DNA of 39,783 nucleotides. Source: a virus (Duplodnaviria; Heunggongvirae; Uroviricota; Caudoviricetes). The stretch lies in the IMG/VR virus record IMGVR_UViG_2706794673_000014. The stretch is one strand, 5' to 3'. Positions 1 to 39,783 of this stretch are shown here, one piece after another. Each line of letters begins with the position of its first letter. The stretch's first letter is position 1. The position numbers and the translations under genes are program-made. The notes beneath the pieces were generated by a model, which saw only the letters and a program-made list of their open reading frames with translations, did not search any database and was not told the origin of the DNA.

Positions 1-459
1 TTATTCAGTCGGCAGTGCTACGCGCCAGGGGAGCAGTTCGCCGACCCGGTTTATCGGCCAGTCGGCTATGACGTCAAGGACATAGCGGAGGTAGCTTTCT
101 GGCTCCACTCCGTTCAGTTTGCACGTCCCGATCAGGCTGTACAGCAGCGCTCCCCGCTCTCCTCCATGATCCGAACCGAAGAACAGGTAGTTTTTGCGGC
201 CCAGACTGACCATCCGCAACGCATTTTCAGCGATGTTATTGTCCGCCTCAGCCCAGCCATCATCTGCATAGTACGTCAGCGCCGGCCACTGGTTCAGGGC
301 ATATGCGAACGCTTTCGCCAGTTCTGAGTGTCGCGACAGGGTTTTCATCTTTTCACGCAGCCAGCTTTCCAGGGATTTCAGCAGCGGTTTCGTTTTCAAC
401 TGACGTTCGGCAAGGCGCTGTTTCAGCAGGAAGATGTCGTCAGAAGAGATGTCGTTCAT
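1..459 (-). pseudogene. tnpC: IS66-family transposase (TnpC/Orf3) C-terminal fragment, roughly the last 150 aa; 5' two-thirds absent
   Basis: Translation ends ...NIAENALR...GRKNYLFFGSDHGGERGALLYSLIGTCKLNGVEPESYLRYVLDVIADWP, as recalled for IS66 TnpC C-termini; stop at 1-3; in-frame stop upstream at 520-522. Confidence 0.8.
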
Positions 460-545
460 AAGCCCGTATTTTACCGGGCTTATTCTGTGACAACCAGGAT
501 AAAGAGATTTACAGCATGGTCAGGGAGGTCAGCAGCCGCTTAGGC

Positions 546-640
546 TGTCTATAGCGCGGCGATTTTTTTGATACCGATTTGCATTTCATTTGATACCGCT
601 GAAAAACGCCGATACGCAACTTATTTGATACTAAATCGGC
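546..640. repeat. Right-end (attR-like) terminal repeat region: three closely spaced TTTGATAC(C/T) motifs at 567-575, 589-597, 624-632
   Basis: Motif read directly; inverted copies at the other end (39253-39261, 39158-39166, 39106-39114); tight spacing matches Mu attR R1-R3. Confidence 0.7.
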
Positions 641-5063: not shown

Positions 5064-5616
5064 GAGCTGGTGAGGCAGGAAAATAACGATAAAGGGTGGA
5101 AAGGCCAATATCAAATATCAGTGCGATTTGTTTACGGGACTCGCCATTAGCCAGCAAACGGGCGATTTGCTCCCGCTCTTTCTCTGTCAGTTTCTGAGGT
5201 CTGCCGCCATGACGCCCCTGAGCACGGGCAGCAGCAAGACCCGCGCGTGTACGTTCAATAATGAGTTCCCGCTCCATTTCCGCCAGCGCGCCCATTATAT
5301 GGAAAAAGAAACGTCCCATGGGAGTGGATGTATCAATATTGTCCGTAATGCTGCGGAAGTTAACGCCGCGTTGCCGGAGTTCTTCTGTTAAAAGGACAAG
5401 GTGCTGCATACTGCGTCCAAGGCGATCCAGTTTCCAGACCAGCAGGGTATCCCCTGGCCGGAGTCGCTTTAATGCGCGTTTAAGTCCGGGACGCTCCCTT
5501 GTCTTACCGCTTATTCTGTCTTCGAAAAACAGCTCACATCCTGCACATTCCAGCGCATTTCTTTGTAGCGCCGTATTCTGGTCATTTGTTGACACCCTGA
5601 TATACCCAATCAGCAT
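5044..5616 (-). CDS. gin: Gin/Hin/Pin-family serine DNA invertase
   Basis: MLIGYIRVSTNDQ...LLVWKLDRLGRSMQHL...GRFFFHIMGALAEMERELIIERT closely matches recalled Mu Gin; sits beside the invertible segment. Confidence 0.93.
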   Translation of the reverse strand: MLIGYIRVSTNDQNTALQRNALECAGCELFFEDRISGKTRERPGLKRALKRLRPGDTLLVWKLDRLGRSMQHLVLLTEELRQRGVNFRSITDNIDTSTPMGRFFFHIMGALAEMERELIIERTRAGLAAARAQGRHGGRPQKLTEKEREQIARLLANGESRKQIALIFDIGLSTLYRYFPASPAPSPKVP

Positions 5617-5681
5617 ACGATTTCCTTATTATAAAAAGCCGGAATTGTCGCATGAGGAATAAAACAGAGTTAATCCTGGCT

Positions 5682-5707
5682 TTCCTGAAAACCTCGGTTT
5701 ACGGGAA
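5682..5707. repeat. gix-like recombination site 1 (TTCCTGAAAACC-TC-GGTTTACGGGAA), core 5694-5695
   Basis: 26-bp imperfect palindrome with 12-bp half-sites and 2-bp core; resembles recalled Mu gix/hix sites. Confidence 0.75.
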
Positions 5708-6055
5708 ACGGTAAACAGGGCGGCGAATGCTCTGCCATCGGACGGCACCGCCGTTGCCGCGAATAGACTCGCCACCCCAAGAAATATTAATGGGGTTCCC
5801 TTTGACGGGACGCAGGACATAAACATCACTTCTGGTATAACACAGCAGGATGCGGATTCCCGATATATCCAGGATATCAGGCTGGGAGCAGAGAACAGGC
5901 AGGTAATGTACGGTGGGGCATATTACTCTGCGTACGGTAATGTTATGGCAGGCCTGCAGATTGACAGTAAAGTTGATGCTTCAAACGATTTTATAGCATT
6001 CAGACCCCTGCAAAAATTAGTCGGAGGTACATGGATTACGGTATCTCAGTTATAA
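5696..6055 (+). CDS. Alternative tail-fibre C-terminal cassette (Sv'-like), start-less; would fuse in frame to the constant part of S after inversion
   Basis: Open frame from crossover to stop 6053-6055 encoding [25 protein letters not shown]...FRPLQKLVGGTWITVSQL; first 23 aa identical to the corresponding part of S; no start codon. Confidence 0.65.
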   Translation, partial: GLRETVNRAANALPSDGTAVAANRLATPRNINGVPFDGTQDINITSGITQQDADSRYIQDIRLGAENRQVMYGGAYYSAYGNVMAGLQIDSKVDASNDFIAFRPLQKLVGGTWITVSQL

Positions 6056-6659: not shown

Positions 6660-7541
6660 TTATATACTTGCAGCCGTCACCCATGCTCCATTTAACAGAT
6701 ACTGCAACGGCCGGTAATACACGCCGCCGACGTTATCTGCCGTATTCTTACCGACATCCTGTACTTTAATTCCGGTAAGAACATTGCCGCCCCCCAGATT
6801 CAGATCCCAGCTTTCCCATGTTCCGGGCATATGTGCGGTCACCGACCCCAGTCTTATGGCGGTTACTGTTCCTGATGAGATAGTGATATCCTGCGTCCCG
6901 TCAAAGGGAACACCATTAATTGTGTGGGCATTTGCCAGCCTGTTCGCGGCAACGGCGGTGCCGTCCGATGGCAGGGCATTCGCCGCCCTGTTTACCGTTT
7001 CCCGTAAACCGACGTTATCGATAAAAGCCCCTTTATCCGGAATGTCTGCGCCGTTCTGCTCCCTGCGCAGGTAACGGTTATCACCTTCGCTTTTGCTGTA
7101 AACATCCAGATTATTACGGGCGGTTCCCTTATTCTCCAGGTCGGCGAGATTCTGATCCTTCGCCAGGGCATTAACGTCAGCGGGACCAAGACTGTTTTTT
7201 GTGGCAAGCGTCCCCAGACCAAGATAACCACGGGCCAGACGCTGGGCCTCCGCACCGGCATCAGCAATTTCTTTCAGGTTATTTTTCCGGGAAAAGGCAT
7301 TCGCAGCGATAATGGCTTTAATGGACAGCGTAAGCTGGTTTAACTGCGCCTTATCCGGCTGAATACTGGCTTCAGCCAGAATATTCAGCAGTTCGGCCTG
7401 GAGAATATTCAGCCAGTCCTGACCAATCCAGCTGATACCTTTTTGTCCGTCACCTTCGGTAAACCAGGTGGTGGTATTACTCTGCGCCGGTGCCAGCGCA
7501 GGCATATTCGCCACGCCGGAATTATTATCAACATGAAACAT
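6660..7541 (-). CDS. Tail fibre protein (Mu S-like); C-terminal ~75 aa encoded inside the invertible segment
   Basis: N-terminus [30 protein letters not shown] matches recalled Mu S; reading frame passes through gix site 2. Confidence 0.85.
6999..7024. repeat. gix-like recombination site 2 (TTCCCGTAAACC-GA-CGTTATCGATAA), core 7011-7012, inside the S gene
   Basis: Inverted relative to site 1; outer half-site TTATCGATAACG resembles recalled Mu gixL TTATCCAAAACC. Confidence 0.75.
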
Positions 7542-8101
7542 TAAATAGTCTCCTCTTCATGGCTGTTTGCATAAACGTAAATAAACGTCTGCCATGCAGG
7601 CTTATAACGGTTCAGAATACATTCCAGCGCACCGCCTTCATAAATACGCAGCGGCGTGAGAATATCATCCAGCACATTCATATTCCGGTAGCCGGTTTCA
7701 CTGTTAATCGTGACAATACTGACCCACTGCGAATCCGGTGAGGGCTGAATGTCAATCTGATAACCAAACTCCGCCGCAAACCGGATATAAAATTCACGGT
7801 TCAGCGAGGGCTTCATCCGGTATTTATTTCCGGCATAACGCTGTCGCTCCGTGAGGGTGGCTCCGGCCATATCACACTCGGGAAGCCCGAGATAACGCTC
7901 CCAGTCTTCCAGCAGCAGGCGCGACGTGTCAGGGAAACGCTCGGCAAGCAGCTGTTTACCCGTCCAGGATACACGCGCTGTCGAATGACTGAGGCCCAGA
8001 CATAATGATGCCAGTACGGATGACGGACGCTTGTCCCATGCCAGCCCGTCAGGCAGTAACTGCAACAGGGCGCGCTGATGCGGGGTCAGGGTTACAGCCA
8101 T
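7541..8101 (-). CDS. Tail/baseplate protein (Mu gp48-like)
   Basis: 186-aa ORF between baseplate J-like gene and tail fibre; gene order. Confidence 0.65.
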
Positions 8102-9192
8102 GTGATTTCTCCTACCGTCAGCAGCTCACTGTCTCCCGCCTGAACTGACGTCAGCGGACTGCGCACTTCAAAATCCTCCAGATTTTTCACCCCTGCCACC
8201 GCCCGCCAGAAAGACGACGGCAGAACCAGACCGCCGGGCCGGGATTCGTTATACAACAGGTCGGTCAGCGCCTGTTTTACGGCCGCCTGATTCTCCGGTG
8301 TTTTCGGGATGATCCTGATGCTGAAGGGCACCGGCTTATTGGTCAGTTTAAACACGGTCACCGTCGGCCCCAGAGGCTGTCCGACAGGCTGGCCGGTCGC
8401 CGGATCATCATGACTGCGGATATAATCCGCCACCCGCTGAACATCACCGTCACCGGGGAAAATATCCGGGTTATTATCCTGAACAAACGTTACCCCCACG
8501 CTGCCCGCCTGCGGCCATTCCGGGCGGCACCATGCCCGCGTCACGCCCGGCACTTCACGCGCCCAGCGTTCAAAATCATACTGCGTGCCGNNNNNNNNNN
8601 NNNNNNNNNNNNNNNNNNNNNNNNNNNNNNNNNNNNNNNNNNNNNNNNNNNNNNNNNNNNNNNNNNNNNNNNNNNNNNNNNNNNNNNNNNNNNNNNNNNN
8701 NNNNNNNNNNNNNNNNNNNNNNNNNNNNNNNNNNNNNNNNNNNNNNNNNNNNNNNNNNNNNNNNNNNNNNNNNNNNNNNNNNNNNNNNNNNNNNNNNNNN
8801 NNNNNNNNNNNNNNNNNNNNNNNNNNNNNNNNNNNNNNNNNNNNNNNNTAAACCACGCCATCACTTCGCTGGAGAAGCACACCTTCCTTGATCCCCGCAT
8901 CCGTGGTCAGCATCAGCTGAACCGGCCCGTCCCCCCGAGAGGCAGGCTTACGCATGACGCCCCAGAATGCACAGTGTTTCAGCAGTTCGGCTTCATCGGC
9001 TTCGGTCGGGATGATCTGACGCGCAATCCAGGCCAGATGCTCATGCTCCTGAGCAGATAACCCTGCCTGAGCGTAAGCAATGGCATTCAGGGTGGTTTCA
9101 TTCACACCCGGCTGCGAGCCGGGCAGGCGCTGGCTGATATCCTGCTGTGTCTGCGTGATTAACTGTGCCAGCGGTAAAGGCTGATAAGGCAT
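8092..9192 (-). CDS. Baseplate J-like protein (Mu gp47-like); interrupted by N-run 8591-8848
   Basis: Size and position in baseplate cluster; both flanks of the gap read as one frame. Confidence 0.7.
   Translation of the reverse strand: MPYQPLPLAQLITQTQQDISQRLPGSQPGVNETTLNAIAYAQAGLSAQEHEHLAWIARQIIPTEADEAELLKHCAFWGVMRKPASRGDGPVQLMLTTDAGIKEGVLLQRSDGVVXXXXXXXXXXXXXXXXXXXXXXXXXXXXXXXXXXXXXXXXXXXXXXXXXXXXXXXXXXXXXXXXXXXXXXXXXXXXXXXXXXXXXXXGTQYDFERWAREVPGVTRAWCRPEWPQAGSVGVTFVQDNNPDIFPGDGDVQRVADYIRSHDDPATGQPVGQPLGPTVTVFKLTNKPVPFSIRIIPKTPENQAAVKQALTDLLYNESRPGGLVLPSSFWRAVAGVKNLEDFEVRSPLTSVQAGDSELLTVGEITWL
8591..8848. other. Run of N (unsequenced or masked)
   Basis: Read directly. Confidence 1.
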
Positions 9193-9629
9193 TACTCCCC
9201 CTTAAGATCAGCATAAAAAATCATGGGCCTCACTGAACCATCAGGCAGGGTTATGCGCACCGAAAGCGCCAGCCGCGCGTGTCCCACACGTTCTGCATGA
9301 CAGACCACGGATGACGCCACGCCATCCTGACTGAGCCAGCCCAGCGCCTCATCCGCGTAAGCACGGGCACGGCTTATCACCGAGGCCAGCGTTTTTTCCC
9401 GGCTGAGAAGCCACAGACGGGAGCCAATGGGGCGCGGGCGAAAACTGTCTCCCCACCATCCCCGGCGGTCGCGCGTACCGTCAGGGATTTCATCCGATGC
9501 CAGCGCCCGGCGGTCAGTAAACAGCGAAATCAGAACGGCCGTCAGCAGACTGTCATCCGTCAGCAAGTCGGCACCGTTCAGTTGCAGCGAACCGCACCCC
9601 TGATCCCATACAATTGCAATATCAGCCAT
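9192..9629 (-). CDS. Baseplate protein (Mu gp46/W-like)
   Basis: ATG at 9627-9629 overlapping stop of upstream gene (ATGGCTGA); gene order. Confidence 0.65.
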   Translation of the reverse strand: MADIAIVWDQGCGSLQLNGADLLTDDSLLTAVLISLFTDRRALASDEIPDGTRDRRGWWGDSFRPRPIGSRLWLLSREKTLASVISRARAYADEALGWLSQDGVASSVVCHAERVGHARLALSVRITLPDGSVRPMIFYADLKGE

Positions 9630-10236
9630 TCTCCGGCGCTCCTGTCTTACTGCCTTTGCCGTTATCCTGATGCACATGGCCGGAATAGGTGATCCCGGCA
9701 ATAACGGCATCAGACATCGTGAACAGCCCGTCTGATTTACCTGTACCATCAAGCACGAAATTACCCTTAACATGCAGGTTTTTATCCACCGTCACATTGC
9801 CCGTAAAGGTGGCCTCCGGCGTATCCACCCGCATCCCCTCATCGGCGTAAATCTCCAGCATTTTGCATGTCACAATAATGCGACCATCCTTTGTTAACCG
9901 TATCCGGTGCCCCTCATGGTGATACACCCCCGTATCTCCGGCTGTGAGTCCGGTCGGGCGGCTGCGCCGGTCTTCCACCACAAGCACCACAGTCTGATCC
10001 CGCTGTCCGCCCAGACAGGCAAAAAAGGTTTCCGCACCCGGCAGGGGAACGCTGATCTGCCCGTACTGCTGGGGACGCTCCACATCATCAAAGGTTTCGC
10101 CGTCCATGCCGGTGAGCTGCACATTCTGCATTTTCAGTTCGTCATGTGTGCCGGTCAGAACGCCCCGGCCAAACAACAGGCGAATACCGCGCGTTACCGG
10201 GGCAATCAGGCGGCTGAACACTTCATCATTCATCAA
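9622..10236 (-). CDS. Baseplate assembly/spike protein V (Mu gp45-like)
   Basis: 204-aa ORF in baseplate cluster; gene order and size. Confidence 0.75.
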   Translation of the reverse strand: MMNDEVFSRLIAPVTRGIRLLFGRGVLTGTHDELKMQNVQLTGMDGETFDDVERPQQYGQISVPLPGAETFFACLGGQRDQTVVLVVEDRRSRPTGLTAGDTGVYHHEGHRIRLTKDGRIIVTCKMLEIYADEGMRVDTPEATFTGNVTVDKNLHVKGNFVLDGTGKSDGLFTMSDAVIAGITYSGHVHQDNGKGSKTGAPENG

Positions 10237-11350
10237 AGCTGATCCCCTGTTTTTTCATCTGCTGGCGAATAAAGGCATCAACATCGTCACCGGAACCACC
10301 CCGGCCCTTACTGTCCGGCTCTGCCGGAACGATAAAGCCGTCACGCGGTGCCAGTACCAGCCGGGTGACTTCCCCGTTATGTTCATCAAGTAAAAACTCC
10401 ACCTGACAGACCAGCAGTTCAGTCTGTTCTATACCGAAACGCAGGGCTGAAACACCGGTCAGCAGATTGACATCCCATAACCGGCCATCATCCCGGAACC
10501 AGCCACGCACGGTGGCAGAAAACCGTTCTGAACGGGCAATCGCACGGCGCATTTCACGCAGGGCACGCTGCCGTGCACCGGTGGTGTCTGTCTGTTGATC
10601 GGCGAGGATGATTTTCGACCGGTAGCGGCCGATCTGCTCATCACTGATGACGCCCACAGGTGCTGCCAGACGGGCGGCGGATTCGCTGTCTCCCCGTTTG
10701 CCACCACCGCGCCCGTGTCCCCGGACACGGTATTCGCTGTATCGTCCTCGCCAGTCCGTGTTGTAATCGGCATCAAGCAGGTTATCTCCCAGCACCAGTC
10801 TGTCCGTCTGCTGGCTTCCTGCCTGGGTGAACACCAGATCGCCGTCAGCATTACTGGTCACCAGCACCCCGCGATGCCGGGCAGCACGGGTCAGCGCATC
10901 CGCCACGGTTTCTGAGTTTTCCAGCGTAAAAGAGCTGAAGGGGCGTGCAGCCGTGTCGTCGTTAACCTGCCAGCGCACGGCTATCCCGAAGGGCGCACAT
11001 AAATCTGCGGCAATCTGTGCCAGCGTCCGGTTGCGCCACTGGCTGCCGGGATGGATGGCGGCACAGTCCACCAGGTCGCCGGTTTTATCCCGACCGCTGA
11101 TGCTGATCTGATGACGGGTTGCACTGATCCGCTGACTGACCTGATCCAGCCAGCCACTGATGACCGTCTGCCCGTTAATTCTGAGCGTCAGGGACTGACC
11201 GGTTCGCAGGGCTGAGGGGATGCGCTCACCGGGCAGCATCAGCCCCAGTTCAAACGACCCGGCCAGATGCTCCAGCGAGCGACGGACGCTGACCGTCAGC
11301 CAGCCGGAAAAAATACTGCCACCGATATACAGTTCAATCCTGCTGCTCAC
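10226..11350 (-). CDS. Baseplate hub/tail protein (Mu gp44-like)
   Basis: 374-aa ORF after DNA circularisation gene; gene order. Confidence 0.7.
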   Translation of the reverse strand: MSSRIELYIGGSIFSGWLTVSVRRSLEHLAGSFELGLMLPGERIPSALRTGQSLTLRINGQTVISGWLDQVSQRISATRHQISISGRDKTGDLVDCAAIHPGSQWRNRTLAQIAADLCAPFGIAVRWQVNDDTAARPFSSFTLENSETVADALTRAARHRGVLVTSNADGDLVFTQAGSQQTDRLVLGDNLLDADYNTDWRGRYSEYRVRGHGRGGGKRGDSESAARLAAPVGVISDEQIGRYRSKIILADQQTDTTGARQRALREMRRAIARSERFSATVRGWFRDDGRLWDVNLLTGVSALRFGIEQTELLVCQVEFLLDEHNGEVTRLVLAPRDGFIVPAEPDSKGRGGSGDDVDAFIRQQMKKQGISFDE

Positions 11351-12692
11351 TGATCACCTCCACGCTGCGGCCACCCGGAACAAAAACCGGATCGGGGATA
11401 TTGTTTCTGCGGACAAAATACTGCCAGCGACTGCTGTTGCCGGTGGCACGGTACAGCGTGACCAGTGCCGGTTCGGTGGTGCGAACCATGACCTGAAAAG
11501 CACCGGGAAGATGCACGCTCCGTGTGGTTAAATCTTCTGTCAGCGCAAGCCCTGCATCACGTAATGCAAGGGCAGTCCCGGTATAGCCCTGTGCGGACAG
11601 ATCCAGCACCTGTTGTTCCATGGCATCGCTCAAATCCCGGTTGATACGCTGCACATCAGCAGAACTTTCCAGCCAGGCCAGTCCGCCCGAACGGTCAGTA
11701 TCCTGAACGTGCGTCGTATTCTGCCGGATGACCTGATCCAGCAGTTTTCCGAGCGTCTGTGCCTGCGACACCAGGGTTGCACTCTGCATCACGCTCCGCA
11801 GCAGACGGATATTTTTCTGTGCCGCAGGCGTCAGGCCAATCAGGCGCTGTGGATCATCCTGTTCGCTGAGGGTGTAACGCAGGGAGGAAAGTGTGCGGTA
11901 CAGCTGCGGCATGGCCTGCTCTGCCATGCTGTCACGGTTTGTGGTCAGGCTGCCGGACGGCGTTCCGGCTTTTCCGGTCAGAGACAGGGAAGGATCGCCG
12001 GGCAGCCCGGTCAGCACGGCAAACATTCCGGCCAGCGATTCAGCCATGCGACGGGGCGCATTAATCAGGGCGGCGGCATTGCCTTTCAGGGCAGTAAAAC
12101 TGGCCGTAAAGGCACTGATATCCTGCACAATCCCCATCCCCGAAACGGCATTCTCCAGTGCATCAATCTTATCGCTGATGGTGTCGGTCATGGCCTGTAC
12201 ATCATGCAGACCGTCTGAAATCACCGTCCAGCCGTCTGAAAGCGTGTTAAACAGCTGATTCATTGCTGAGCCGCTTTTCTGCTCCAGCGCAGCTGCCGTA
12301 TCTTCTGCCACCGCAGGGGCGGTATCGTCACTGGCGGGGATCACGTTGATCGTGAACTCAACCGTTCCCTGCTCGCTGGCGTTATAACGGCTTTCAAAGC
12401 TGTTTATCAGCACGTTTAACGTGCCGTAATCCGGGTGCATCAGTTCACCGGCACCGGGTGCACGCAGCGCATCACGCAGGCGGCTTCGCTGTGTCTGAAG
12501 ATCGTCTCCGGTCACCAGAACCGTGAATGTGAACTCCGGGAGTTTTGGCCCCAGATCATCCGCACCGCCGCTTTCACGCAGTGGGTATTCACGGCGCACA
12601 ATGTTACGTCCGCCCCGTTCCCGCTGCTCCTGATAAACCAGGAACGGTACGCCACGAAAGGAGCCACGCCCCGGCGTGTCAGTAGAGGCCAT
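11334..12692 (-). CDS. DNA circularisation protein (Mu gp43/P-like)
   Basis: 452-aa ORF immediately after tape measure; gene order. Confidence 0.75.
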   Translation of the reverse strand: MASTDTPGRGSFRGVPFLVYQEQRERGGRNIVRREYPLRESGGADDLGPKLPEFTFTVLVTGDDLQTQRSRLRDALRAPGAGELMHPDYGTLNVLINSFESRYNASEQGTVEFTINVIPASDDTAPAVAEDTAAALEQKSGSAMNQLFNTLSDGWTVISDGLHDVQAMTDTISDKIDALENAVSGMGIVQDISAFTASFTALKGNAAALINAPRRMAESLAGMFAVLTGLPGDPSLSLTGKAGTPSGSLTTNRDSMAEQAMPQLYRTLSSLRYTLSEQDDPQRLIGLTPAAQKNIRLLRSVMQSATLVSQAQTLGKLLDQVIRQNTTHVQDTDRSGGLAWLESSADVQRINRDLSDAMEQQVLDLSAQGYTGTALALRDAGLALTEDLTTRSVHLPGAFQVMVRTTEPALVTLYRATGNSSRWQYFVRRNNIPDPVFVPGGRSVEVISEQQD

Positions 12693-21198: not shown

Positions 21199-21672
21199 TT
21201 ACGGCGTTTCTGTGGCCTTTTTAAAGCGTTTTCTGATTTCGTCCATGATCTCCTGTTCTGCCACCTGATCAAAGCCCATATACGGACGTGCGCCAATGGC
21301 CGCCGGTCCCGGTGGCATACCAGGCAGGCCACCCCACTGATGAATGGCTGCATAAGGTTCATTTGATCCAATCAGCGCCCAGGTATCGCCATAATCCGTG
21401 GTCAGGCGGCGGGCCAGATCGCCGTTCAGCGTCAGGATTTTGCCGGGCGTGTATCCCTTACGGGTACGCCACTCACGGTAAGGATCTGACCAGTCATGCC
21501 AGCGTTCACCATCCGGCTCTTTTTCCTGCTCAAACGCCATTTCTGACGATGACAGAAGACTCGCCGCCACACTGCGGGCCAGGTCTTTTCCGCCGCCCAC
21601 AAACTGAAGCCGGGCAAACACTCGCTGGAGACGCGTAACGTCAACAACGACAGCTGCATCAATGGATGACAT
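21199..21672 (-). CDS. Virion morphogenesis protein (Mu G-like)
   Basis: 157-aa ORF between F-like and I-like genes. Confidence 0.7.
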   Translation of the reverse strand: MSSIDAAVVVDVTRLQRVFARLQFVGGGKDLARSVAASLLSSSEMAFEQEKEPDGERWHDWSDPYREWRTRKGYTPGKILTLNGDLARRLTTDYGDTWALIGSNEPYAAIHQWGGLPGMPPGPAAIGARPYMGFDQVAEQEIMDEIRKRFKKATETP

Positions 21673-21793
21673 ATTGCCTCCGCATAAAGGATGAATATAA
21701 AATAAACAGGCGGTCAGTGTACGCTTAACTGGTAAAGTCGGTGCCTGCCTCCGGGTGGATCATGTATGCGGGTTCGACCCCCGCCACTGACCG

Positions 21794-34741: not shown

Positions 34742-34969
34742 TTAGCTGACTTGTTTCGCACCAACAGAACGGCATATTCCGCTGTAAACTTCTGTCGCAC
34801 CTTCGCGATCAAGTCCGGCAGATATCACCATTCGTGTGCGGTCATTAAATTCAAAAAGTAAATCGCCACATTCTTTATTTTCGGCCAGTGAAATCACCTT
34901 CACGTTATCGAAATTAACCAGGTAAAAGCGTCCGTAAATATCAGGAATATTAAATACCGCCATAATCAC
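34742..34969 (-). CDS. Hypothetical protein, 75 aa, at the position and size of Mu kil
   Basis: First gene after B; size ~74 aa as in Mu kil; position only. Confidence 0.4.
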   Translation of the reverse strand: MIMAVFNIPDIYGRFYLVNFDNVKVISLAENKECGDLLFEFNDRTRMVISAGLDREGATEVYSGICRSVGAKQVS

Positions 34970-35907
34970 ACCTGTGAGAGTAATTCAGGGTTGGTATAAA
35001 CCTCTTTAAAGGCCGCATTAATATGTTTTTCTGTCAGCGCCGCGCCTTCACCGCTGGCGGTGAGCCACGCCTGGTTAAGCGTATGTGTCAGAACGCGTAA
35101 CGCTCCCGGCTTTTCAGCGATAGCCTGCATGACGGCCAGCTCGGCCTCACCACTGATCCCCCACGCCATGGCAATGGCCAGCACATCCGCCTTTTTGGCC
35201 TTGCGAAGTTGTTTTGTACGGGCAAGACGGCTGAACAGGCGCGATAAATCATCAAAGGCGCGGCGTCCACCTTTAAACAATCCGCGCGGGTTACCAATAA
35301 GCACCATCCCGATCCCCGTGGCGTCCTGAATTGCCCGGAGTTGCTCCAGACCGTCAATACCAAGATGATCCGCCTCATCCACAATCACCAGTCCACGCGT
35401 TCCCATCAGGCGACGGCGGATGGCGCGGGATAATGCCCCTTTGTTCGCGCGGGTGTAATCAATCCCCAGCGCATCGGCCAGCTCCAGCAGACACTCCGTG
35501 ACGCTGGAGTGCGCGGGTGACAGGGTGATCATCCAGGTGTTTGGTTGCTCCTGGCAGTAATTACGGGCAGTGGCCGTTTTACCCACACCCGGTACGCCCA
35601 CAATAACGTTAATACAGCCCATCAGGCGAACCGCCTGAAACAGTGCGCGCAGCTCCTGGACTGTCTGAGTTTCCACAAACTGCGGCGGTTCCGGCAGTGC
35701 GCTTTGTTTATTCCAGTTCTCATACCAGGAGCGCAGGGAAGCAGCCACAGCAGCGTTATCGCCTTTATATTTTCCCTTACGGAAAGCCGATAATGTGCCG
35801 TCGGAAATTCCCGCCTCTCTGGCGATGGCATACTGCGTCAGTACGCCGCCATCAATAAGTTCATCAATGGTCTTGATTACATCGTTAATATCGGTCATAT
35901 TATTCAC
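34966..35907 (-). CDS. B: MuB-like AAA+ transposition target-capture ATPase
   Basis: Walker A VGVPGVGKT, LVIVDEADHLG Walker B, ...KPGALRVL...; closely matches recalled Mu B. Confidence 0.92.
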   Translation of the reverse strand: MNNMTDINDVIKTIDELIDGGVLTQYAIAREAGISDGTLSAFRKGKYKGDNAAVAASLRSWYENWNKQSALPEPPQFVETQTVQELRALFQAVRLMGCINVIVGVPGVGKTATARNYCQEQPNTWMITLSPAHSSVTECLLELADALGIDYTRANKGALSRAIRRRLMGTRGLVIVDEADHLGIDGLEQLRAIQDATGIGMVLIGNPRGLFKGGRRAFDDLSRLFSRLARTKQLRKAKKADVLAIAMAWGISGEAELAVMQAIAEKPGALRVLTHTLNQAWLTASGEGAALTEKHINAAFKEVYTNPELLSQV

Positions 35908-35980: not shown

Positions 35981-38068
35981 TCAGGCCAGCGGATCACTTT
36001 CTTTTAATTTCGCTTCGAGCAGTTGCAATCCCCGCTGGAAATTACGCTCGTATTCTTCATCAGGTTCATCGTCAGCGACCGGTTGCTGAACGGTCACCGT
36101 ATTACCCACAGGGCGGTATATGTTTTCCAGCCAGGGCTCCTGCGGCTTGTGCTCCAGCACGTTGACAACCTCATCCTCGGCATCACGGATTTTTTCCTCT
36201 GCGCGTTTACGCATGCCTTTAAGGCGCTGCTGCTGTTTGTAGTATTCCGCGCTGACAGGGAAGGCTTCGCGTTTATTGCCGTCCCATACCGCCTCGCAAA
36301 TCACGCTGCCATCCGGGCGGCGCACGGTAATTCGTTCGGCATCATGAATGTCATAGCTGATAAGTACCTTACGGCCATGCTCGTCACGCAGCTCGGGCGC
36401 GTAGTAAATATTATTCAGCCAGCGTATTTCACAGCGTCTTACAGGGCGCTCCACCATCGGCCGGAACATATCCCGCAGTTCAACATCGGACAGCCATTCA
36501 ATTTCCGTGTCCTCTTCCGCCAGGCGTTTTTTTCTGAACTCCGCCGGGCTGTAATGTTTACCGTTCGGCTTCATGGGTAATTCATCGTGCGGCCGGTTGT
36601 TGTACCACTCAACACCGTCACGAATGGCATCAATCAGTTCAGACCAGGACGGTAAATCACGCATCGCTGACTGCTGCCGGGCGTTCAGCCGTTTGCCCTG
36701 TTGCAGGGCACTGAATGCCGAGCGTAAATCGCGGTTGGTTTTACGTAACGTCTCGCGATCTGCTCCTTTCCCGAAATAGGTGCGGTATTTACGGGCTATG
36801 CGCATCGGTAATGTGCGGTTAAGCCGTTCGATAATGCCCCGTCCCTGCGGATTACCGGCAATCCCTGTCGGGTGATTAATCCCCAGTCGTGGCAGTATCC
36901 CCACAATCTCCTTATCCAGGACGTCGGCGGTTTCCCCGGAGCCATTATCCGAGTAATACAGAAACGGTTTGCCATGATGGCGAATACCGTGCTGTATGGC
37001 ACCGGCTACGGCGAAAACATTTTCAGCCAGGTCAAGGCTCCAGCCCACCACAAAGCGCGTGCCACCGTCGATAACAAAGGTCACTTCCGGTGCGAATGGC
37101 CGCCCGTGAACCGGGTGCGCGCATTTCAGCTTCATGCCGTGACCGTCACCAATCCAGACATAATTCACCGGCATTCTGGACCAGTCGCGGCGCGTGAATC
37201 CCTCAAGCTGACGGTATTCACTGCCAGTTACCCGGCCTTTTTGTTTCACCACTTCCGGCAGTTTCTTCATTGCGCGGCGAATGGTGTCATAAGAGGGCAT
37301 GATATCGAGCATATAAGGCTCATCAGCGTGCCGGTGCTGCCATTCAGCAACAAAATCCTCGTAAGCCTCGGTCATTGGTCGGCCGTTTGACTGGCGATAC
37401 TGCGCCAGAAATTCGGGCAGCCAGTTAATATCTTCGGCTTTTATTTCCTGGCGTTTACCCGGTGCCAGTAAAAGCAGGCGTTCAGCGGCGTTCTGTGCCT
37501 TGTTAAAGGCCGCAATCCAGCGTTTCAGCGTGATTTCACTCAACGCGCGGCTGTTTCCCTTTTTGGCGTTCGCCGTCTCAACCATTGCCACAATGCGCTC
37601 GTCCAGTTGTGATCGTGCCAGGCTGTTAACGAGGAACCGGATAGCTTTAGCGCAGCTGAAACCGGGTTGTTGCGTGAATTTCAGCACCTCACTGACGATC
37701 GCAATGCGTGCGTCTGCCACCTGGCGCTGGTTTTCAGTCAGGGCATTGAGGCGTTCGACCATCAGTTGTGGTGATCCGCGATATGCCTCCACCGCATCAA
37801 CCACGGCAGACGAGCGTCTGGCCTTTGTCACCACCGGAGCCGGTGATTCATCGGCTTTTTGCGTCATCAGTTGCAGGGCATAACGTTCGCGTAATGCCTG
37901 CTGTGTCACTTCAGGTAAACAGTCAATGCTGTATTCAAAACCTTTAGCGCCTTTCTTGCGGCGTCTGCTGGTTTCGCTGGTTGCATACTTCCTGATTGAA
38001 TAGCGAACGCCTTGCTCCGTTCCCGGCATCCCCGGTAATCCAACCAGTTCTTTAACTGAAGCAAACAT
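35981..38068 (-). CDS. A: MuA-like DDE transposase
   Basis: 695-aa ORF between ner and B; N-terminal end-binding-like region; length and order as Mu A. Confidence 0.93.
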   Translation of the reverse strand: MFASVKELVGLPGMPGTEQGVRYSIRKYATSETSRRRKKGAKGFEYSIDCLPEVTQQALRERYALQLMTQKADESPAPVVTKARRSSAVVDAVEAYRGSPQLMVERLNALTENQRQVADARIAIVSEVLKFTQQPGFSCAKAIRFLVNSLARSQLDERIVAMVETANAKKGNSRALSEITLKRWIAAFNKAQNAAERLLLLAPGKRQEIKAEDINWLPEFLAQYRQSNGRPMTEAYEDFVAEWQHRHADEPYMLDIMPSYDTIRRAMKKLPEVVKQKGRVTGSEYRQLEGFTRRDWSRMPVNYVWIGDGHGMKLKCAHPVHGRPFAPEVTFVIDGGTRFVVGWSLDLAENVFAVAGAIQHGIRHHGKPFLYYSDNGSGETADVLDKEIVGILPRLGINHPTGIAGNPQGRGIIERLNRTLPMRIARKYRTYFGKGADRETLRKTNRDLRSAFSALQQGKRLNARQQSAMRDLPSWSELIDAIRDGVEWYNNRPHDELPMKPNGKHYSPAEFRKKRLAEEDTEIEWLSDVELRDMFRPMVERPVRRCEIRWLNNIYYAPELRDEHGRKVLISYDIHDAERITVRRPDGSVICEAVWDGNKREAFPVSAEYYKQQQRLKGMRKRAEEKIRDAEDEVVNVLEHKPQEPWLENIYRPVGNTVTVQQPVADDEPDEEYERNFQRGLQLLEAKLKESDPLA

Positions 38069-38070
38069 AA

Positions 38071-38301
38071 TTACGCGACCTTACGAATGTAGCGGCTGGG
38101 CCAAATCTCCTCGGGCGGCACCCCCAGGCATTCCGCGATAATCCCCTCATACTTGGGAACATGGCGGTATACCGCGTTGTACAGATTGTTCTGACCCACG
38201 CCAGCTTTACGGGCCAGCGCCCTCATGCTTCCTTCTCTGGCTCTGACTTCCCCCAAAATTCTTTGAGGATGCCAATCAGGCTTAACTTCATTTCTCGCCA
38301 T
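38071..38301 (-). CDS. ner: Ner-like DNA-binding regulator
   Basis: ...DWHPQRILGEVRAREGSMRALARKAGVGQNNLYNAV...EEIWPSRY matches recalled Mu Ner (DWH...IWPSRY). Confidence 0.9.
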   Translation of the reverse strand: MARNEVKPDWHPQRILGEVRAREGSMRALARKAGVGQNNLYNAVYRHVPKYEGIIAECLGVPPEEIWPSRYIRKVA

Positions 38302-38331
38302 GATTCATCTATCCTAAAAAGTTACGAAATT

Positions 38332-38353
38332 TGATAACTAAACTTAGTTATCA
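38332..38353. promoter_or_regulatory. Perfect 22-bp palindrome TGATAACTAA-AC-TTAGTTATCA in the ner/repressor intergenic region; putative operator
   Basis: Read directly; lies between divergent ner and repressor genes where Mu carries its operators. Confidence 0.5.
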
Positions 38354-38486
38354 AGTTTGATATAAGTATTGATCCACTTCTGCTTCATGTAAAGCAAAAA
38401 AAACATCTTTCTTTTGTCTATTGTGGATCAATGGTTGCTGACAACACTAAAAGTTAATAATTTCAAATTGATAGGAAGAAAAGAAA

Positions 38487-39032
38487 ATGAACAAGCAAAC
38501 AACAACATCTCTTTCTTTTCCTGGTGGTAGAAAAGAAAGCATTGCTGAGCGTCTGAAAAGGCTGATTGGCTCCCGCAGCGTCAGAGCTGCAGCAAGAGAT
38601 TGGGGGCTTTCATTTTCAACACTAAACAATTATCTGTCTCGTGGCACTGAGCCATCCTTAAGTGTCGCCCTTCAGATTGCGTCTATCGAAGGAGTAAGTG
38701 TTGAGTGGCTATGTGGATTCAGTGATGCATCACAAGTGAATCGGTGTGAGATCAAGGAAAATCAAGATGAAAGCAAGAAGATAATTATGACGATTATCAG
38801 CGCACTTGATGAAAAAGACTTAGAGCAGCTATCGAAAAATTTGGTTCTGAATGGAGCCAAGTACTTAGCTCGGTTGTTAGAGCCTGAAAATCAAGATCTA
38901 ATCCGCTTAGAAGGAAGGAAAAGAATAGCTGCATTACAGCTTGAAGGTATGTCTGACGAACGCGTCAGAGAGATTTTGGAAGAAACTGAGAGAAGTCGCA
39001 AATCTAACGCGGTAGAACCAAAAGCGGGTTAA
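38487..39032 (+). CDS. Prophage repressor (HTH DNA-binding protein, functional analogue of Mu c)
   Basis: Divergent from ner, reads toward the phage end as Mu c does; HTH-like AAARDWGLSFSTLNNYLSRGTEPSLSVALQIA; AT-rich. Confidence 0.75.
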   Translation: MNKQTTTSLSFPGGRKESIAERLKRLIGSRSVRAAARDWGLSFSTLNNYLSRGTEPSLSVALQIASIEGVSVEWLCGFSDASQVNRCEIKENQDESKKIIMTIISALDEKDLEQLSKNLVLNGAKYLARLLEPENQDLIRLEGRKRIAALQLEGMSDERVREILEETERSRKSNAVEPKAG

Positions 39033-39105
39033 TAGCATTAGCCCGCATTTTGCACTATATCGAGTATTTCGCATTGTTTGGAACGCCTTAAAAGACTAAA
39101 ACCAC

Positions 39106-39286
39106 AGTATCAAATGAGTTGCCGATTTTATAATAAATGACTAATTATTGCACAATCGGTATCAAATAGACCTTATCCGCACATCTAGCCATCACCTGTT
39201 TTATTTCAGTATCTTACAGGTGATTTCACCTCCTTTCACTAAACCCCTTGTCGGTATCAAATGATTCACCTGGTTATATGTCGCCA
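39106..39286. repeat. Left-end (attL-like) terminal repeat region: one GGTATCAAA motif at the terminus (39253-39261), two more 95 and 147 bp inward (39158-39166, 39106-39114)
   Basis: Inverted copies of the right-end motif; spacing (one terminal site, gap, two internal) matches Mu attL L1-L3. Confidence 0.7.
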
Positions 39287-39589
39287 GTCGATACCTTCCA
39301 GCAGCATCGCCAGCTGCGCCTGTGTAAGGAACACTTTGCCATCACGGGCTGACGGCCAGGCGAAGCGCCCACGCTCCAGCCGTTTGGTCAGGAGGCACAG
39401 TCCGTCACTGGTGGACCACAGCAGTTTAACCTGACTGCCGCTGCGGCCCCGGAAAATGAAAACATGGCCGGACATGGGATCGTCTTTCAGCGCCGTCTGT
39501 ACTTTCGCAGCCAGGCCGTTGAAGCCATTTCTCATATCGGTGATACCGGCAACCAGCCAAATTTTGATCCCGGAAGGTAACGGGATCAT
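39266..39589 (-). CDS. tnpB: IS66-family TnpB (Orf2); C-terminus may be altered by the prophage junction
   Basis: MIPLPSGIKIWLVAGITDMRNGFNGLAAKVQ...LWSTSDGLCLLTKRLERGRFAWP typical IS66 Orf2; ATGA overlap with upstream orf at 39586-39589. Confidence 0.9.
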   Translation of the reverse strand: MIPLPSGIKIWLVAGITDMRNGFNGLAAKVQTALKDDPMSGHVFIFRGRSGSQVKLLWSTSDGLCLLTKRLERGRFAWPSARDGKVFLTQAQLAMLLEGIDWRHITR

Positions 39590-39783
39590 CGCTTCAGTTC
39601 CTGTATCAGCAGAGTCAGGAGCTTTTCGCTGACATTGCCATTGAAGCGGAGCGTCCCGTGCCGGAACGTTACCTCACAGCTGATACTGAGGGTTTTCGGG
39701 TCCTCTGCGAGCGATTCTGGCTGTTCGGCAGCTGCATCGAGAGTCACAGGAAGTAGCTGGGGGCTCTCTGAAGAAGGTAATAG
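39586..39783 (-). CDS. tnpA: IS66-family TnpA (Orf1), 3' portion; 5' end beyond window
   Basis: Open minus-strand frame to window edge ending in TGA overlapping the tnpB ATG (classic IS66 orf1/orf2 arrangement). Confidence 0.7.
   Translation of the reverse strand, partial: LLPSSESPQLLPVTLDAAAEQPESLAEDPKTLSISCEVTFRHGTLRFNGNVSEKLLTLLIQELKR

Follow-up and report, generated by a model that had tools for sequence, protein, structure and literature searches.

A Mu-like prophage between two pieces of IS66

The window, by which we mean the whole stretch of DNA analysed here (39,783 nucleotides; IMG/VR virus record IMGVR_UViG_2706794673_000014), contains a Mu-like transposable prophage of the Sp18 type (550-39278, minus strand; 38,729 bp) that lies between two pieces of an insertion sequence of the IS66 family. 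The mom/com end of the prophage is at the left of the window and the end carrying the repressor, ner and transposase genes A and B is at the right, where positions 39100-39783 comprise the phage's repressor ("left", c) end together with the adjoining host flank. From the Pfam families that they match, we recognized genes for Mom (678-1415; Mom) and Com (1369-1569; Zn_ribbon_Com) at the left end and, toward the right end, genes for a MuB-type ATPase of 313 residues (34966-35907; Phage-MuB_C and AAA_22), a transposase of 695 residues (35981-38068, minus strand; Mu-transpos_C and HTH_Tnp_Mu_1), a ner-like protein (38071-38301; HTH_35) and a repressor-like HTH protein (38487-39032; HTH_3). The Mu-type DDE transposase (A) thus lies, together with the AAA+ target-DNA activator (B), next to the repressor and ner genes, as is typical of a transposable phage.

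When the 695-residue transposase was used in a sequence search of the PDB, it matched the N-terminal DNA-binding domain of MuA only (1TNS, E=7e-6); the MuA catalytic core was not matched in this search, and residues 362-424 gave a weak match to avian retroviral integrase cores (E ~2e-4). These matches indicate that the protein is probably a very diverged Mu-type transposase.

In related prophages, RefSeq annotates a 'tRNA-OTHER' feature between the virion morphogenesis and minor head protein genes (positions 21391-21470 of locus L004, equivalent to ~21640-21720 of the window); ARAGORN, run over the whole window, found no tRNA and no tmRNA.

Prophage termini and terminal repeats

The termini of the prophage in the window are 5'-TATAGCGCGG...CCTGGTTATA-3', and identical termini occur at differing host sites in ~233 complete E. 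coli genomes. We compared the copies located in dgcE, bcsA, flgL, garP-garL and two Stx phages and observed that the element constant across copies is 5'-TATAGCGCGG...CCTGGTTA(T/C)A-3', while the host sequence outside it varies.

Both ends carry multiple repeats. At the mom end there are three copies of (A)TTTGATAC(C) (559-631, plus strand), and at the repressor (c) end three copies of GTATCAAAT (39104-39262, minus strand), which are inverted with respect to the mom-end set; each end therefore has three sites of the ATTTGATAC(C) type, in opposite orientation, and we presume that these are transposase-binding sites. The repeat nearest each terminus is offset from it by 17 nt, a distance that is the same at both ends. 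Each exact 9-mer of the terminal repeats has 5 matches, compared with a chance expectation of ~0.3, and nearly all of these matches sit at the two termini; the terminal-repeat motif as such is ~17-fold over chance expectation.

The interrupted IS66 element

The host sequences on the two sides of the prophage preserve the IS66 gene order tnpA-tnpB-tnpC (Pfam TnpB_IS66; DDE_Tnp_IS66 and IS66_C), and all three genes are damaged. The window extends from the tnpC stop codon to the boundary of an IS600-type element, and the ends of the IS66 element itself, where terminal inverted repeats and an 8-bp target duplication would be expected for this family, lie outside it.

A preliminary description of the window had stated that the prophage abuts an IS66 tnpB gene, and our comparisons bear this out: positions 39279-39783 are 98.8-99.6% identical to annotated tnpB/tnpA copies, with the homology beginning at 39279, and the truncated tnpB reading frame of 107 codons (39266-39589, minus strand) matches the Pfam family TnpB_IS66 with E=1e-37. 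The boundary given at that time was correct in its position for the stop codon of the reading frame (39266-39268), but the phage terminus, placed there at 39261-39266, is at 39278. The further suggestion that phage-end sequence completes the C-terminus of TnpB is also borne out. The 107-residue protein consists of 103 native residues followed by H-I-T-R, and the phage terminus (39266-39278) supplies the final base of the His codon, the three codons that follow it and a TGA stop; the protein in the window consequently ends ...LEGIDWR-HITR-stop where the native TnpB ends ...LEGIDWR-QPKRLLTSLTML.

The missing end of tnpB is found at the other side of the prophage. Positions 509-549 (minus strand) hold an orphaned 3' end of 41 nt, in which two bases left over from one codon are followed by the 12 final codons (QPKRLLTSLTML) and the TAA stop, and the adjoining 460-508 (minus strand) is the tnpB-tnpC intergenic spacer of IS66, which lies within the match to locus L002 and agrees at 100% with phage-free loci (L007 and others). 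By blastn, the segment 405-549, which runs from the last 41 nt of tnpB through the spacer into the initial 55 nt of tnpC, corresponds to L002 3222-3366 and to L001 3360-3504 with 99.3% identity; likewise, window positions 350-549 map to 6110-5911 of L007, in which tnpB occupies 5604-5951. The left prophage boundary, previously thought to lie just after 459, is thus displaced to 550, the intervening 460-549 being IS66 spacer and the end of tnpB. Immediately upstream of the tnpC start there is a perfect 7-bp hairpin (460-481), in which AAGCCCG (460-466) and CGGGCTT (475-481) are separated by a loop of 8 nt; this hairpin is part of IS66 and not of the phage, and it may be what prompted the boundary drawn there in the preliminary description.

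The 3' part of tnpA (39586-39783, minus strand), amounting to ~66 codons (~199 nt), forms the right edge of the window. In the source genomes, the 5' part of tnpA has been replaced by an IS600-type element that starts just past the window end: in locus L017 the IS66 homology stops at 5806, one base beyond the end of the window (39783 corresponds to L017 5807), and ahead of that homology (within L017 5200-5806) the sequence matches the IS600 annotated in L001 at 99.5%.

At the left edge, the tnpC reading frame (1-459, minus strand) encodes only 152 residues, which retain no more than the C-terminal third of the IS66 transposase, and its Pfam matches consist of positions 195-283 of the 284-position DDE_Tnp_IS66 profile together with DDE_Tnp_IS66_C. 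Relative to the 512-residue TnpC of ISEc22 it is short by 360 codons (1080 nt), in agreement with the earlier estimate of a loss of about 1 kb. The relatives of the element include ISEc22, ISEc8 and the type carried on O104:H4 pAA plasmids and on ExPEC plasmids. The window copy resembles these in its tnpB, which is 99.4-99.6% identical to WP_000612591-type copies, and in the 3' end of its tnpC, which is 99.8% identical to ISEc22; unlike them, it is non-functional, with a tnpA cut by IS600, a chimeric tnpC of 152 codons and a tnpB split by the prophage.

A gapless empty site in phage-free genomes

The preliminary description had concluded that the flanks do not form contiguous parts of a single IS66 and had proposed, as checks, an alignment of both flanks to an intact element and a search for the empty site. 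Both were carried out, and both lead to the opposite conclusion. Aligned to an intact tnpB, the left flank extends to L002 3366 and the right one (39279-39783) corresponds to L002 3363-3867, so that the two are contiguous and overlap by 4 bp, TGTC. Joining window positions 1-549 to 39283-39783, with a single TGTC kept, we reconstructed an empty site of 1050 bp, and this sequence aligns without gaps and at 100.000% identity to six phage-free loci (L007, L008, L010, L013, L015 and L016) and at 99.9% identity to four further phage-free loci, including one from S. sonnei 53G, HE616528.1 (this accession is assigned to 53G in the literature).

These loci were located only by an exact-protein look-up of the 152-residue TnpC in public assemblies, in which this protein is recorded in 457 index blocks; ten loci were returned. 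In all ten, an intact TnpB of 115 residues lies directly upstream of the same 152-residue TnpC, with elements of the IS3 and IS110 families on one side and, on the other, a phage tail-fibre gene, a gene of the ipaH type (LRR_TTSS with NEL) and a resolvase gene. This neighbourhood is a Shigella context. The occupied allele can be followed in the same way, as the 107-residue TnpB that ends in HITR is recorded in 110 blocks of public assemblies, among them the complete chromosome CP176614.1 as well as contig CWZC01000017.1, the latter being 100% identical to window positions 37000-39783.

We stress that the evidence for the empty site rests on the assemblies reached by the look-up, because the complete E. 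coli genomes and PLSDB plasmids that we searched carry neither the occupied junction nor the exact deleted IS66; matches of full coverage in those collections always consist of two distinct segments, which the search tool had in some cases linked out of order (for example in the match H26).

A target-site duplication of four base pairs

The 4-bp overlap of the flanks is a target-site duplication, whose copies lie at 546-549 (equivalent to L002 3363-3366 and L007 5911-5914) and at 39279-39282, each reading TGTC. The duplication of 5 bp that had been proposed as a check belongs to Mu and not to this lineage; what is found in its place is an exact repeat of 4 bp. A duplication of 5 bp was also considered with the boundary shifted by one base in either direction, and it fails in the window (CTGTC versus ATGTC; TGTCT versus TGTCG), as it does for most other copies of the lineage.

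Repeats of 4 bp flank the prophage at seven independent insertions of the lineage, namely TGTC, CGTA, CGTC, TGCG, TTAT, CTCT and GATG; the six insertions other than that of the window are those in dgcE, bcsA, flgL, garP-garL and the two Stx phages (L004, L006, L019, L020, L026 and L027). For insertions that could be compared with an unoccupied reference, the overlap of the flanks is exactly 4 bp in every case (4/4); K-12 flgL was unusable as an empty-site reference, being too divergent from strain M3. [quoted passage not shown] In addition, the depositors of LC727895.1 and LC727881.1, records in which the annotated 'inserted Bacteriophage Mu-like phage' shares 93% identity with the window prophage, describe a 4-bp 'duplication due to insertion of Mu_...' with boundaries identical to ours. 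Because the seven insertions, the four empty-site overlaps and the annotation of the depositors agree, we conclude that 4 bp is the normal duplication length of the Sp18-type lineage. The observation as such is already known, given its annotation in these two GenBank records; in the literature we found nothing specific on the duplication length of Sp18-type phages, nor did we find the papers behind LC727895 and LC727881.

A tnpC deletion between two IS66 types

The missing block of tnpC had been placed at the prophage junction. The actual deletion junction is at 405-420, and IS66 sequence continues from there to 549. Positions 1-420 of the window are 99.8% identical to the 3' end of ISEc22 tnpC (L003), compared with only 86% to tnpC of the L002 type, and the blastn pieces 1-420 and 405-549 overlap by the 16 nt at 405-420. 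In a three-way alignment of the window, L003 and L002, this patch is common to both IS66 types apart from one mismatch, with a strictly shared core AGGCGCTG; the window follows the ISEc22 type up to 420 and the other IS66 type from 414 onward. Since the patch reads QRLAER in both types, the fusion is in frame. The resulting TnpC joins ~20 N-terminal residues of one IS66 type to ~132 C-terminal residues (~380-512) of the ISEc22 type, with residue 26 of the fusion protein aligning to residue 386 of the 512 residues of ISEc22 TnpC.

Among the elements examined, we found no natural single IS66 element that combines the tnpAB type of the window with an ISEc22-type tnpC 3' end; the tnpC 3' end of elements with this tnpAB type is only ~86% identical. 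From these observations, we infer that the chimera arose by short-homology recombination or deletion between two different copies of the IS66 family.

Origin of the junction

Taken together, the exact TGTC duplication and the empty site account for the structure that a simple insertion with target duplication had been said not to explain, and we consider it almost certain that the locus results from the simple insertion of a Mu-like phage into an already damaged IS66, with no need for a deletion or rearrangement driven by the phage. The preliminary description had listed a damaged target among its alternatives, and it is this alternative that the phage-free genomes support, with their deleted tnpC and intact 115-residue TnpB. 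With 4 bp as the normal signature of the lineage, the window shows a clean simple insertion.

The most probable course of events would be as follows. Before the arrival of the phage, tnpC would have lost 1080 nt through the short-homology join of two IS66-family elements, and tnpA would already have been cut by an IS600-type element. Into this IS66-family remnant, in the chromosome of a Shigella that is most likely S. sonnei, an Sp18-type phage would have integrated by ordinary transposition at tnpB codons 103/104, duplicating TGTC. The insertion split tnpB, leaving its last 12 codons at the mom end (509-549) and the remainder at the repressor end, where it reads into the phage terminus and so acquires four codons and a stop.

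That the tnpC deletion came before the phage is inferred by parsimony, rather than from a dated phylogeny. The reverse order, in which the phage entered an intact IS66, the tnpC deletion followed and the phage-free deleted genomes arose by precise excision, is formally allowed, and nothing specific speaks for it. It would require that precise excision, restoring a single TGTC, had taken place in many lineages, and precise excision of Mu-type prophages is very rare; moreover, the deleted allele, recorded in 457 index blocks, is far commoner than the occupied allele, recorded in 110, and S. sonnei 53G has the deleted allele with an intact tnpB and a different Mu-like prophage nearby. We therefore regard the reverse order as very improbable.

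Mu-type phages are known to delete neighbouring DNA from one of their ends outward, ~1080 nt of tnpC are absent on the mom-end side, and the preliminary description had favoured a deletion or rearrangement of this kind. On such a reading, abortive or replicative transposition from the mom end would, after insertion, have removed ~1 kb of tnpC beside the prophage. A deletion of this kind would begin exactly at the phage terminus and leave non-contiguous flanks. Neither is seen here: the tnpC junction and the phage end at 550 lie 130-145 bp apart, with intact IS66 sequence between the two, and the flanks adjoin each other exactly, apart from the 4 bp that are duplicated. Beyond the junction, furthermore, the sequence derives from a different member of the IS66 family, of the ISEc22 type (99.8% versus 86%). 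Because genomes without the prophage carry the identical tnpC deletion, at 100% identity, we consider an adjacent deletion to be refuted, and the probability left to it is negligible.

IS66-family sequences occur in up to 50 places per genome and repeats often cause assemblies to be broken or mis-joined, but a chimeric contig linking the prophage end to an unrelated IS66 copy is hardly conceivable, because the TnpB ending in HITR recurs in 110 blocks of independent assemblies and a complete chromosome, CWZC01000017.1 matches at 100%, and the two junctions have a matching 4-bp duplication and together restore a perfect known empty site.

A simple insertion into a damaged IS66 is an ordinary event, in which a known type of prophage has entered a dead insertion sequence, and it carries little biological weight. 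No phenotype is expected, because all three IS66 genes were broken already or are broken now. The junction does provide a clean, clade-specific marker, as the chimeric TnpB ending in HITR is common to many assemblies. It also illustrates that prophage boundaries and duplication length should be taken from the lineage concerned (4 bp here) and not from Mu (5 bp), and that damage in a neighbouring gene need not stem from the phage.

Relationship to other transposable phages

The closest relatives of the window prophage are the Sp18-type phages, which include Sp18 of O157:H7 Sakai, Phi804-3 of FRIK804 and, within Stx phages, Mu_JNE122137 and Mu_JNE082796. Sp18 has been described as an intact, packaged Mu-like prophage, with relatives at different loci in each strain (PMC2669165, PMC7430833). 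The window copy shares with these phages the gene order, the termini TATAGCGCGG...CCTGGTTA[C/T]A, a nucleotide identity of 93-100% over large parts, strain-specific insertion sites and flanking duplications of 4 bp. It differs from the other copies in that its host appears to be Shigella and its target is the tnpB of an IS66 remnant. Within the type, the dinucleotide at the repressor end is TA in the window copy and its closest relatives and CA in the O157 and Stx-phage copies, and the repressor region differs among sublineages, with ~78% identity.

Like Mu, SfMu and D108, the window prophage integrates by transposition at essentially random sites with a short target duplication, has repressor, ner, A and B at one end and com and mom at the other, and carries inverted repeats resembling transposase-binding sites. 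Its DNA identity to these three phages is limited to one stretch of ~0.6 kb, at ~72%. It is unlike Mu in its termini, which are TATAGC...GGTTATA (that is, TA...TA, or TA...CA in the O157 type) and not TG...CA, and in its duplication, which is 4 bp and not 5 bp; the canonical 5'-TG...CA-3' termini with a 5-bp duplication are found neither in the window nor in the other copies of the lineage that were compared. For comparison, the duplication is 5 bp in Mu and 6 bp in B3, and TG-CA ends were stated in 2021 to be a conserved feature of every Mu- and B3-like phage described by then (PMC8705779).

We hypothesize, tentatively and with rather less than even confidence, that the Sp18-type enterobacterial phages may form a mechanistically distinct branch of the Mu-like phages, with a 4-bp target stagger, termini of TA rather than TG/CA and a transposase core too diverged from that of MuA to be detected by sequence in the PDB. 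The TA termini and the 4-bp duplication are a modest curiosity of the phage lineage, and not a property of the junction in the window, and they are already visible in public annotation.

A related Mu-like prophage is present in S. sonnei 53G (L009 ~7125-12459), ~0.7 kb from the IS66 remnant and in the same orientation, where it sits in the neighbouring phage tail-fibre gene; it was seen at its repressor-end junction only, at which the terminus reads ...GGTTACA. It is 97% identical to the window phage in the transposase region and ~78% identical in the repressor-end region, and it represents a second, independent insertion of this type of phage within 1 kb, in another lineage.
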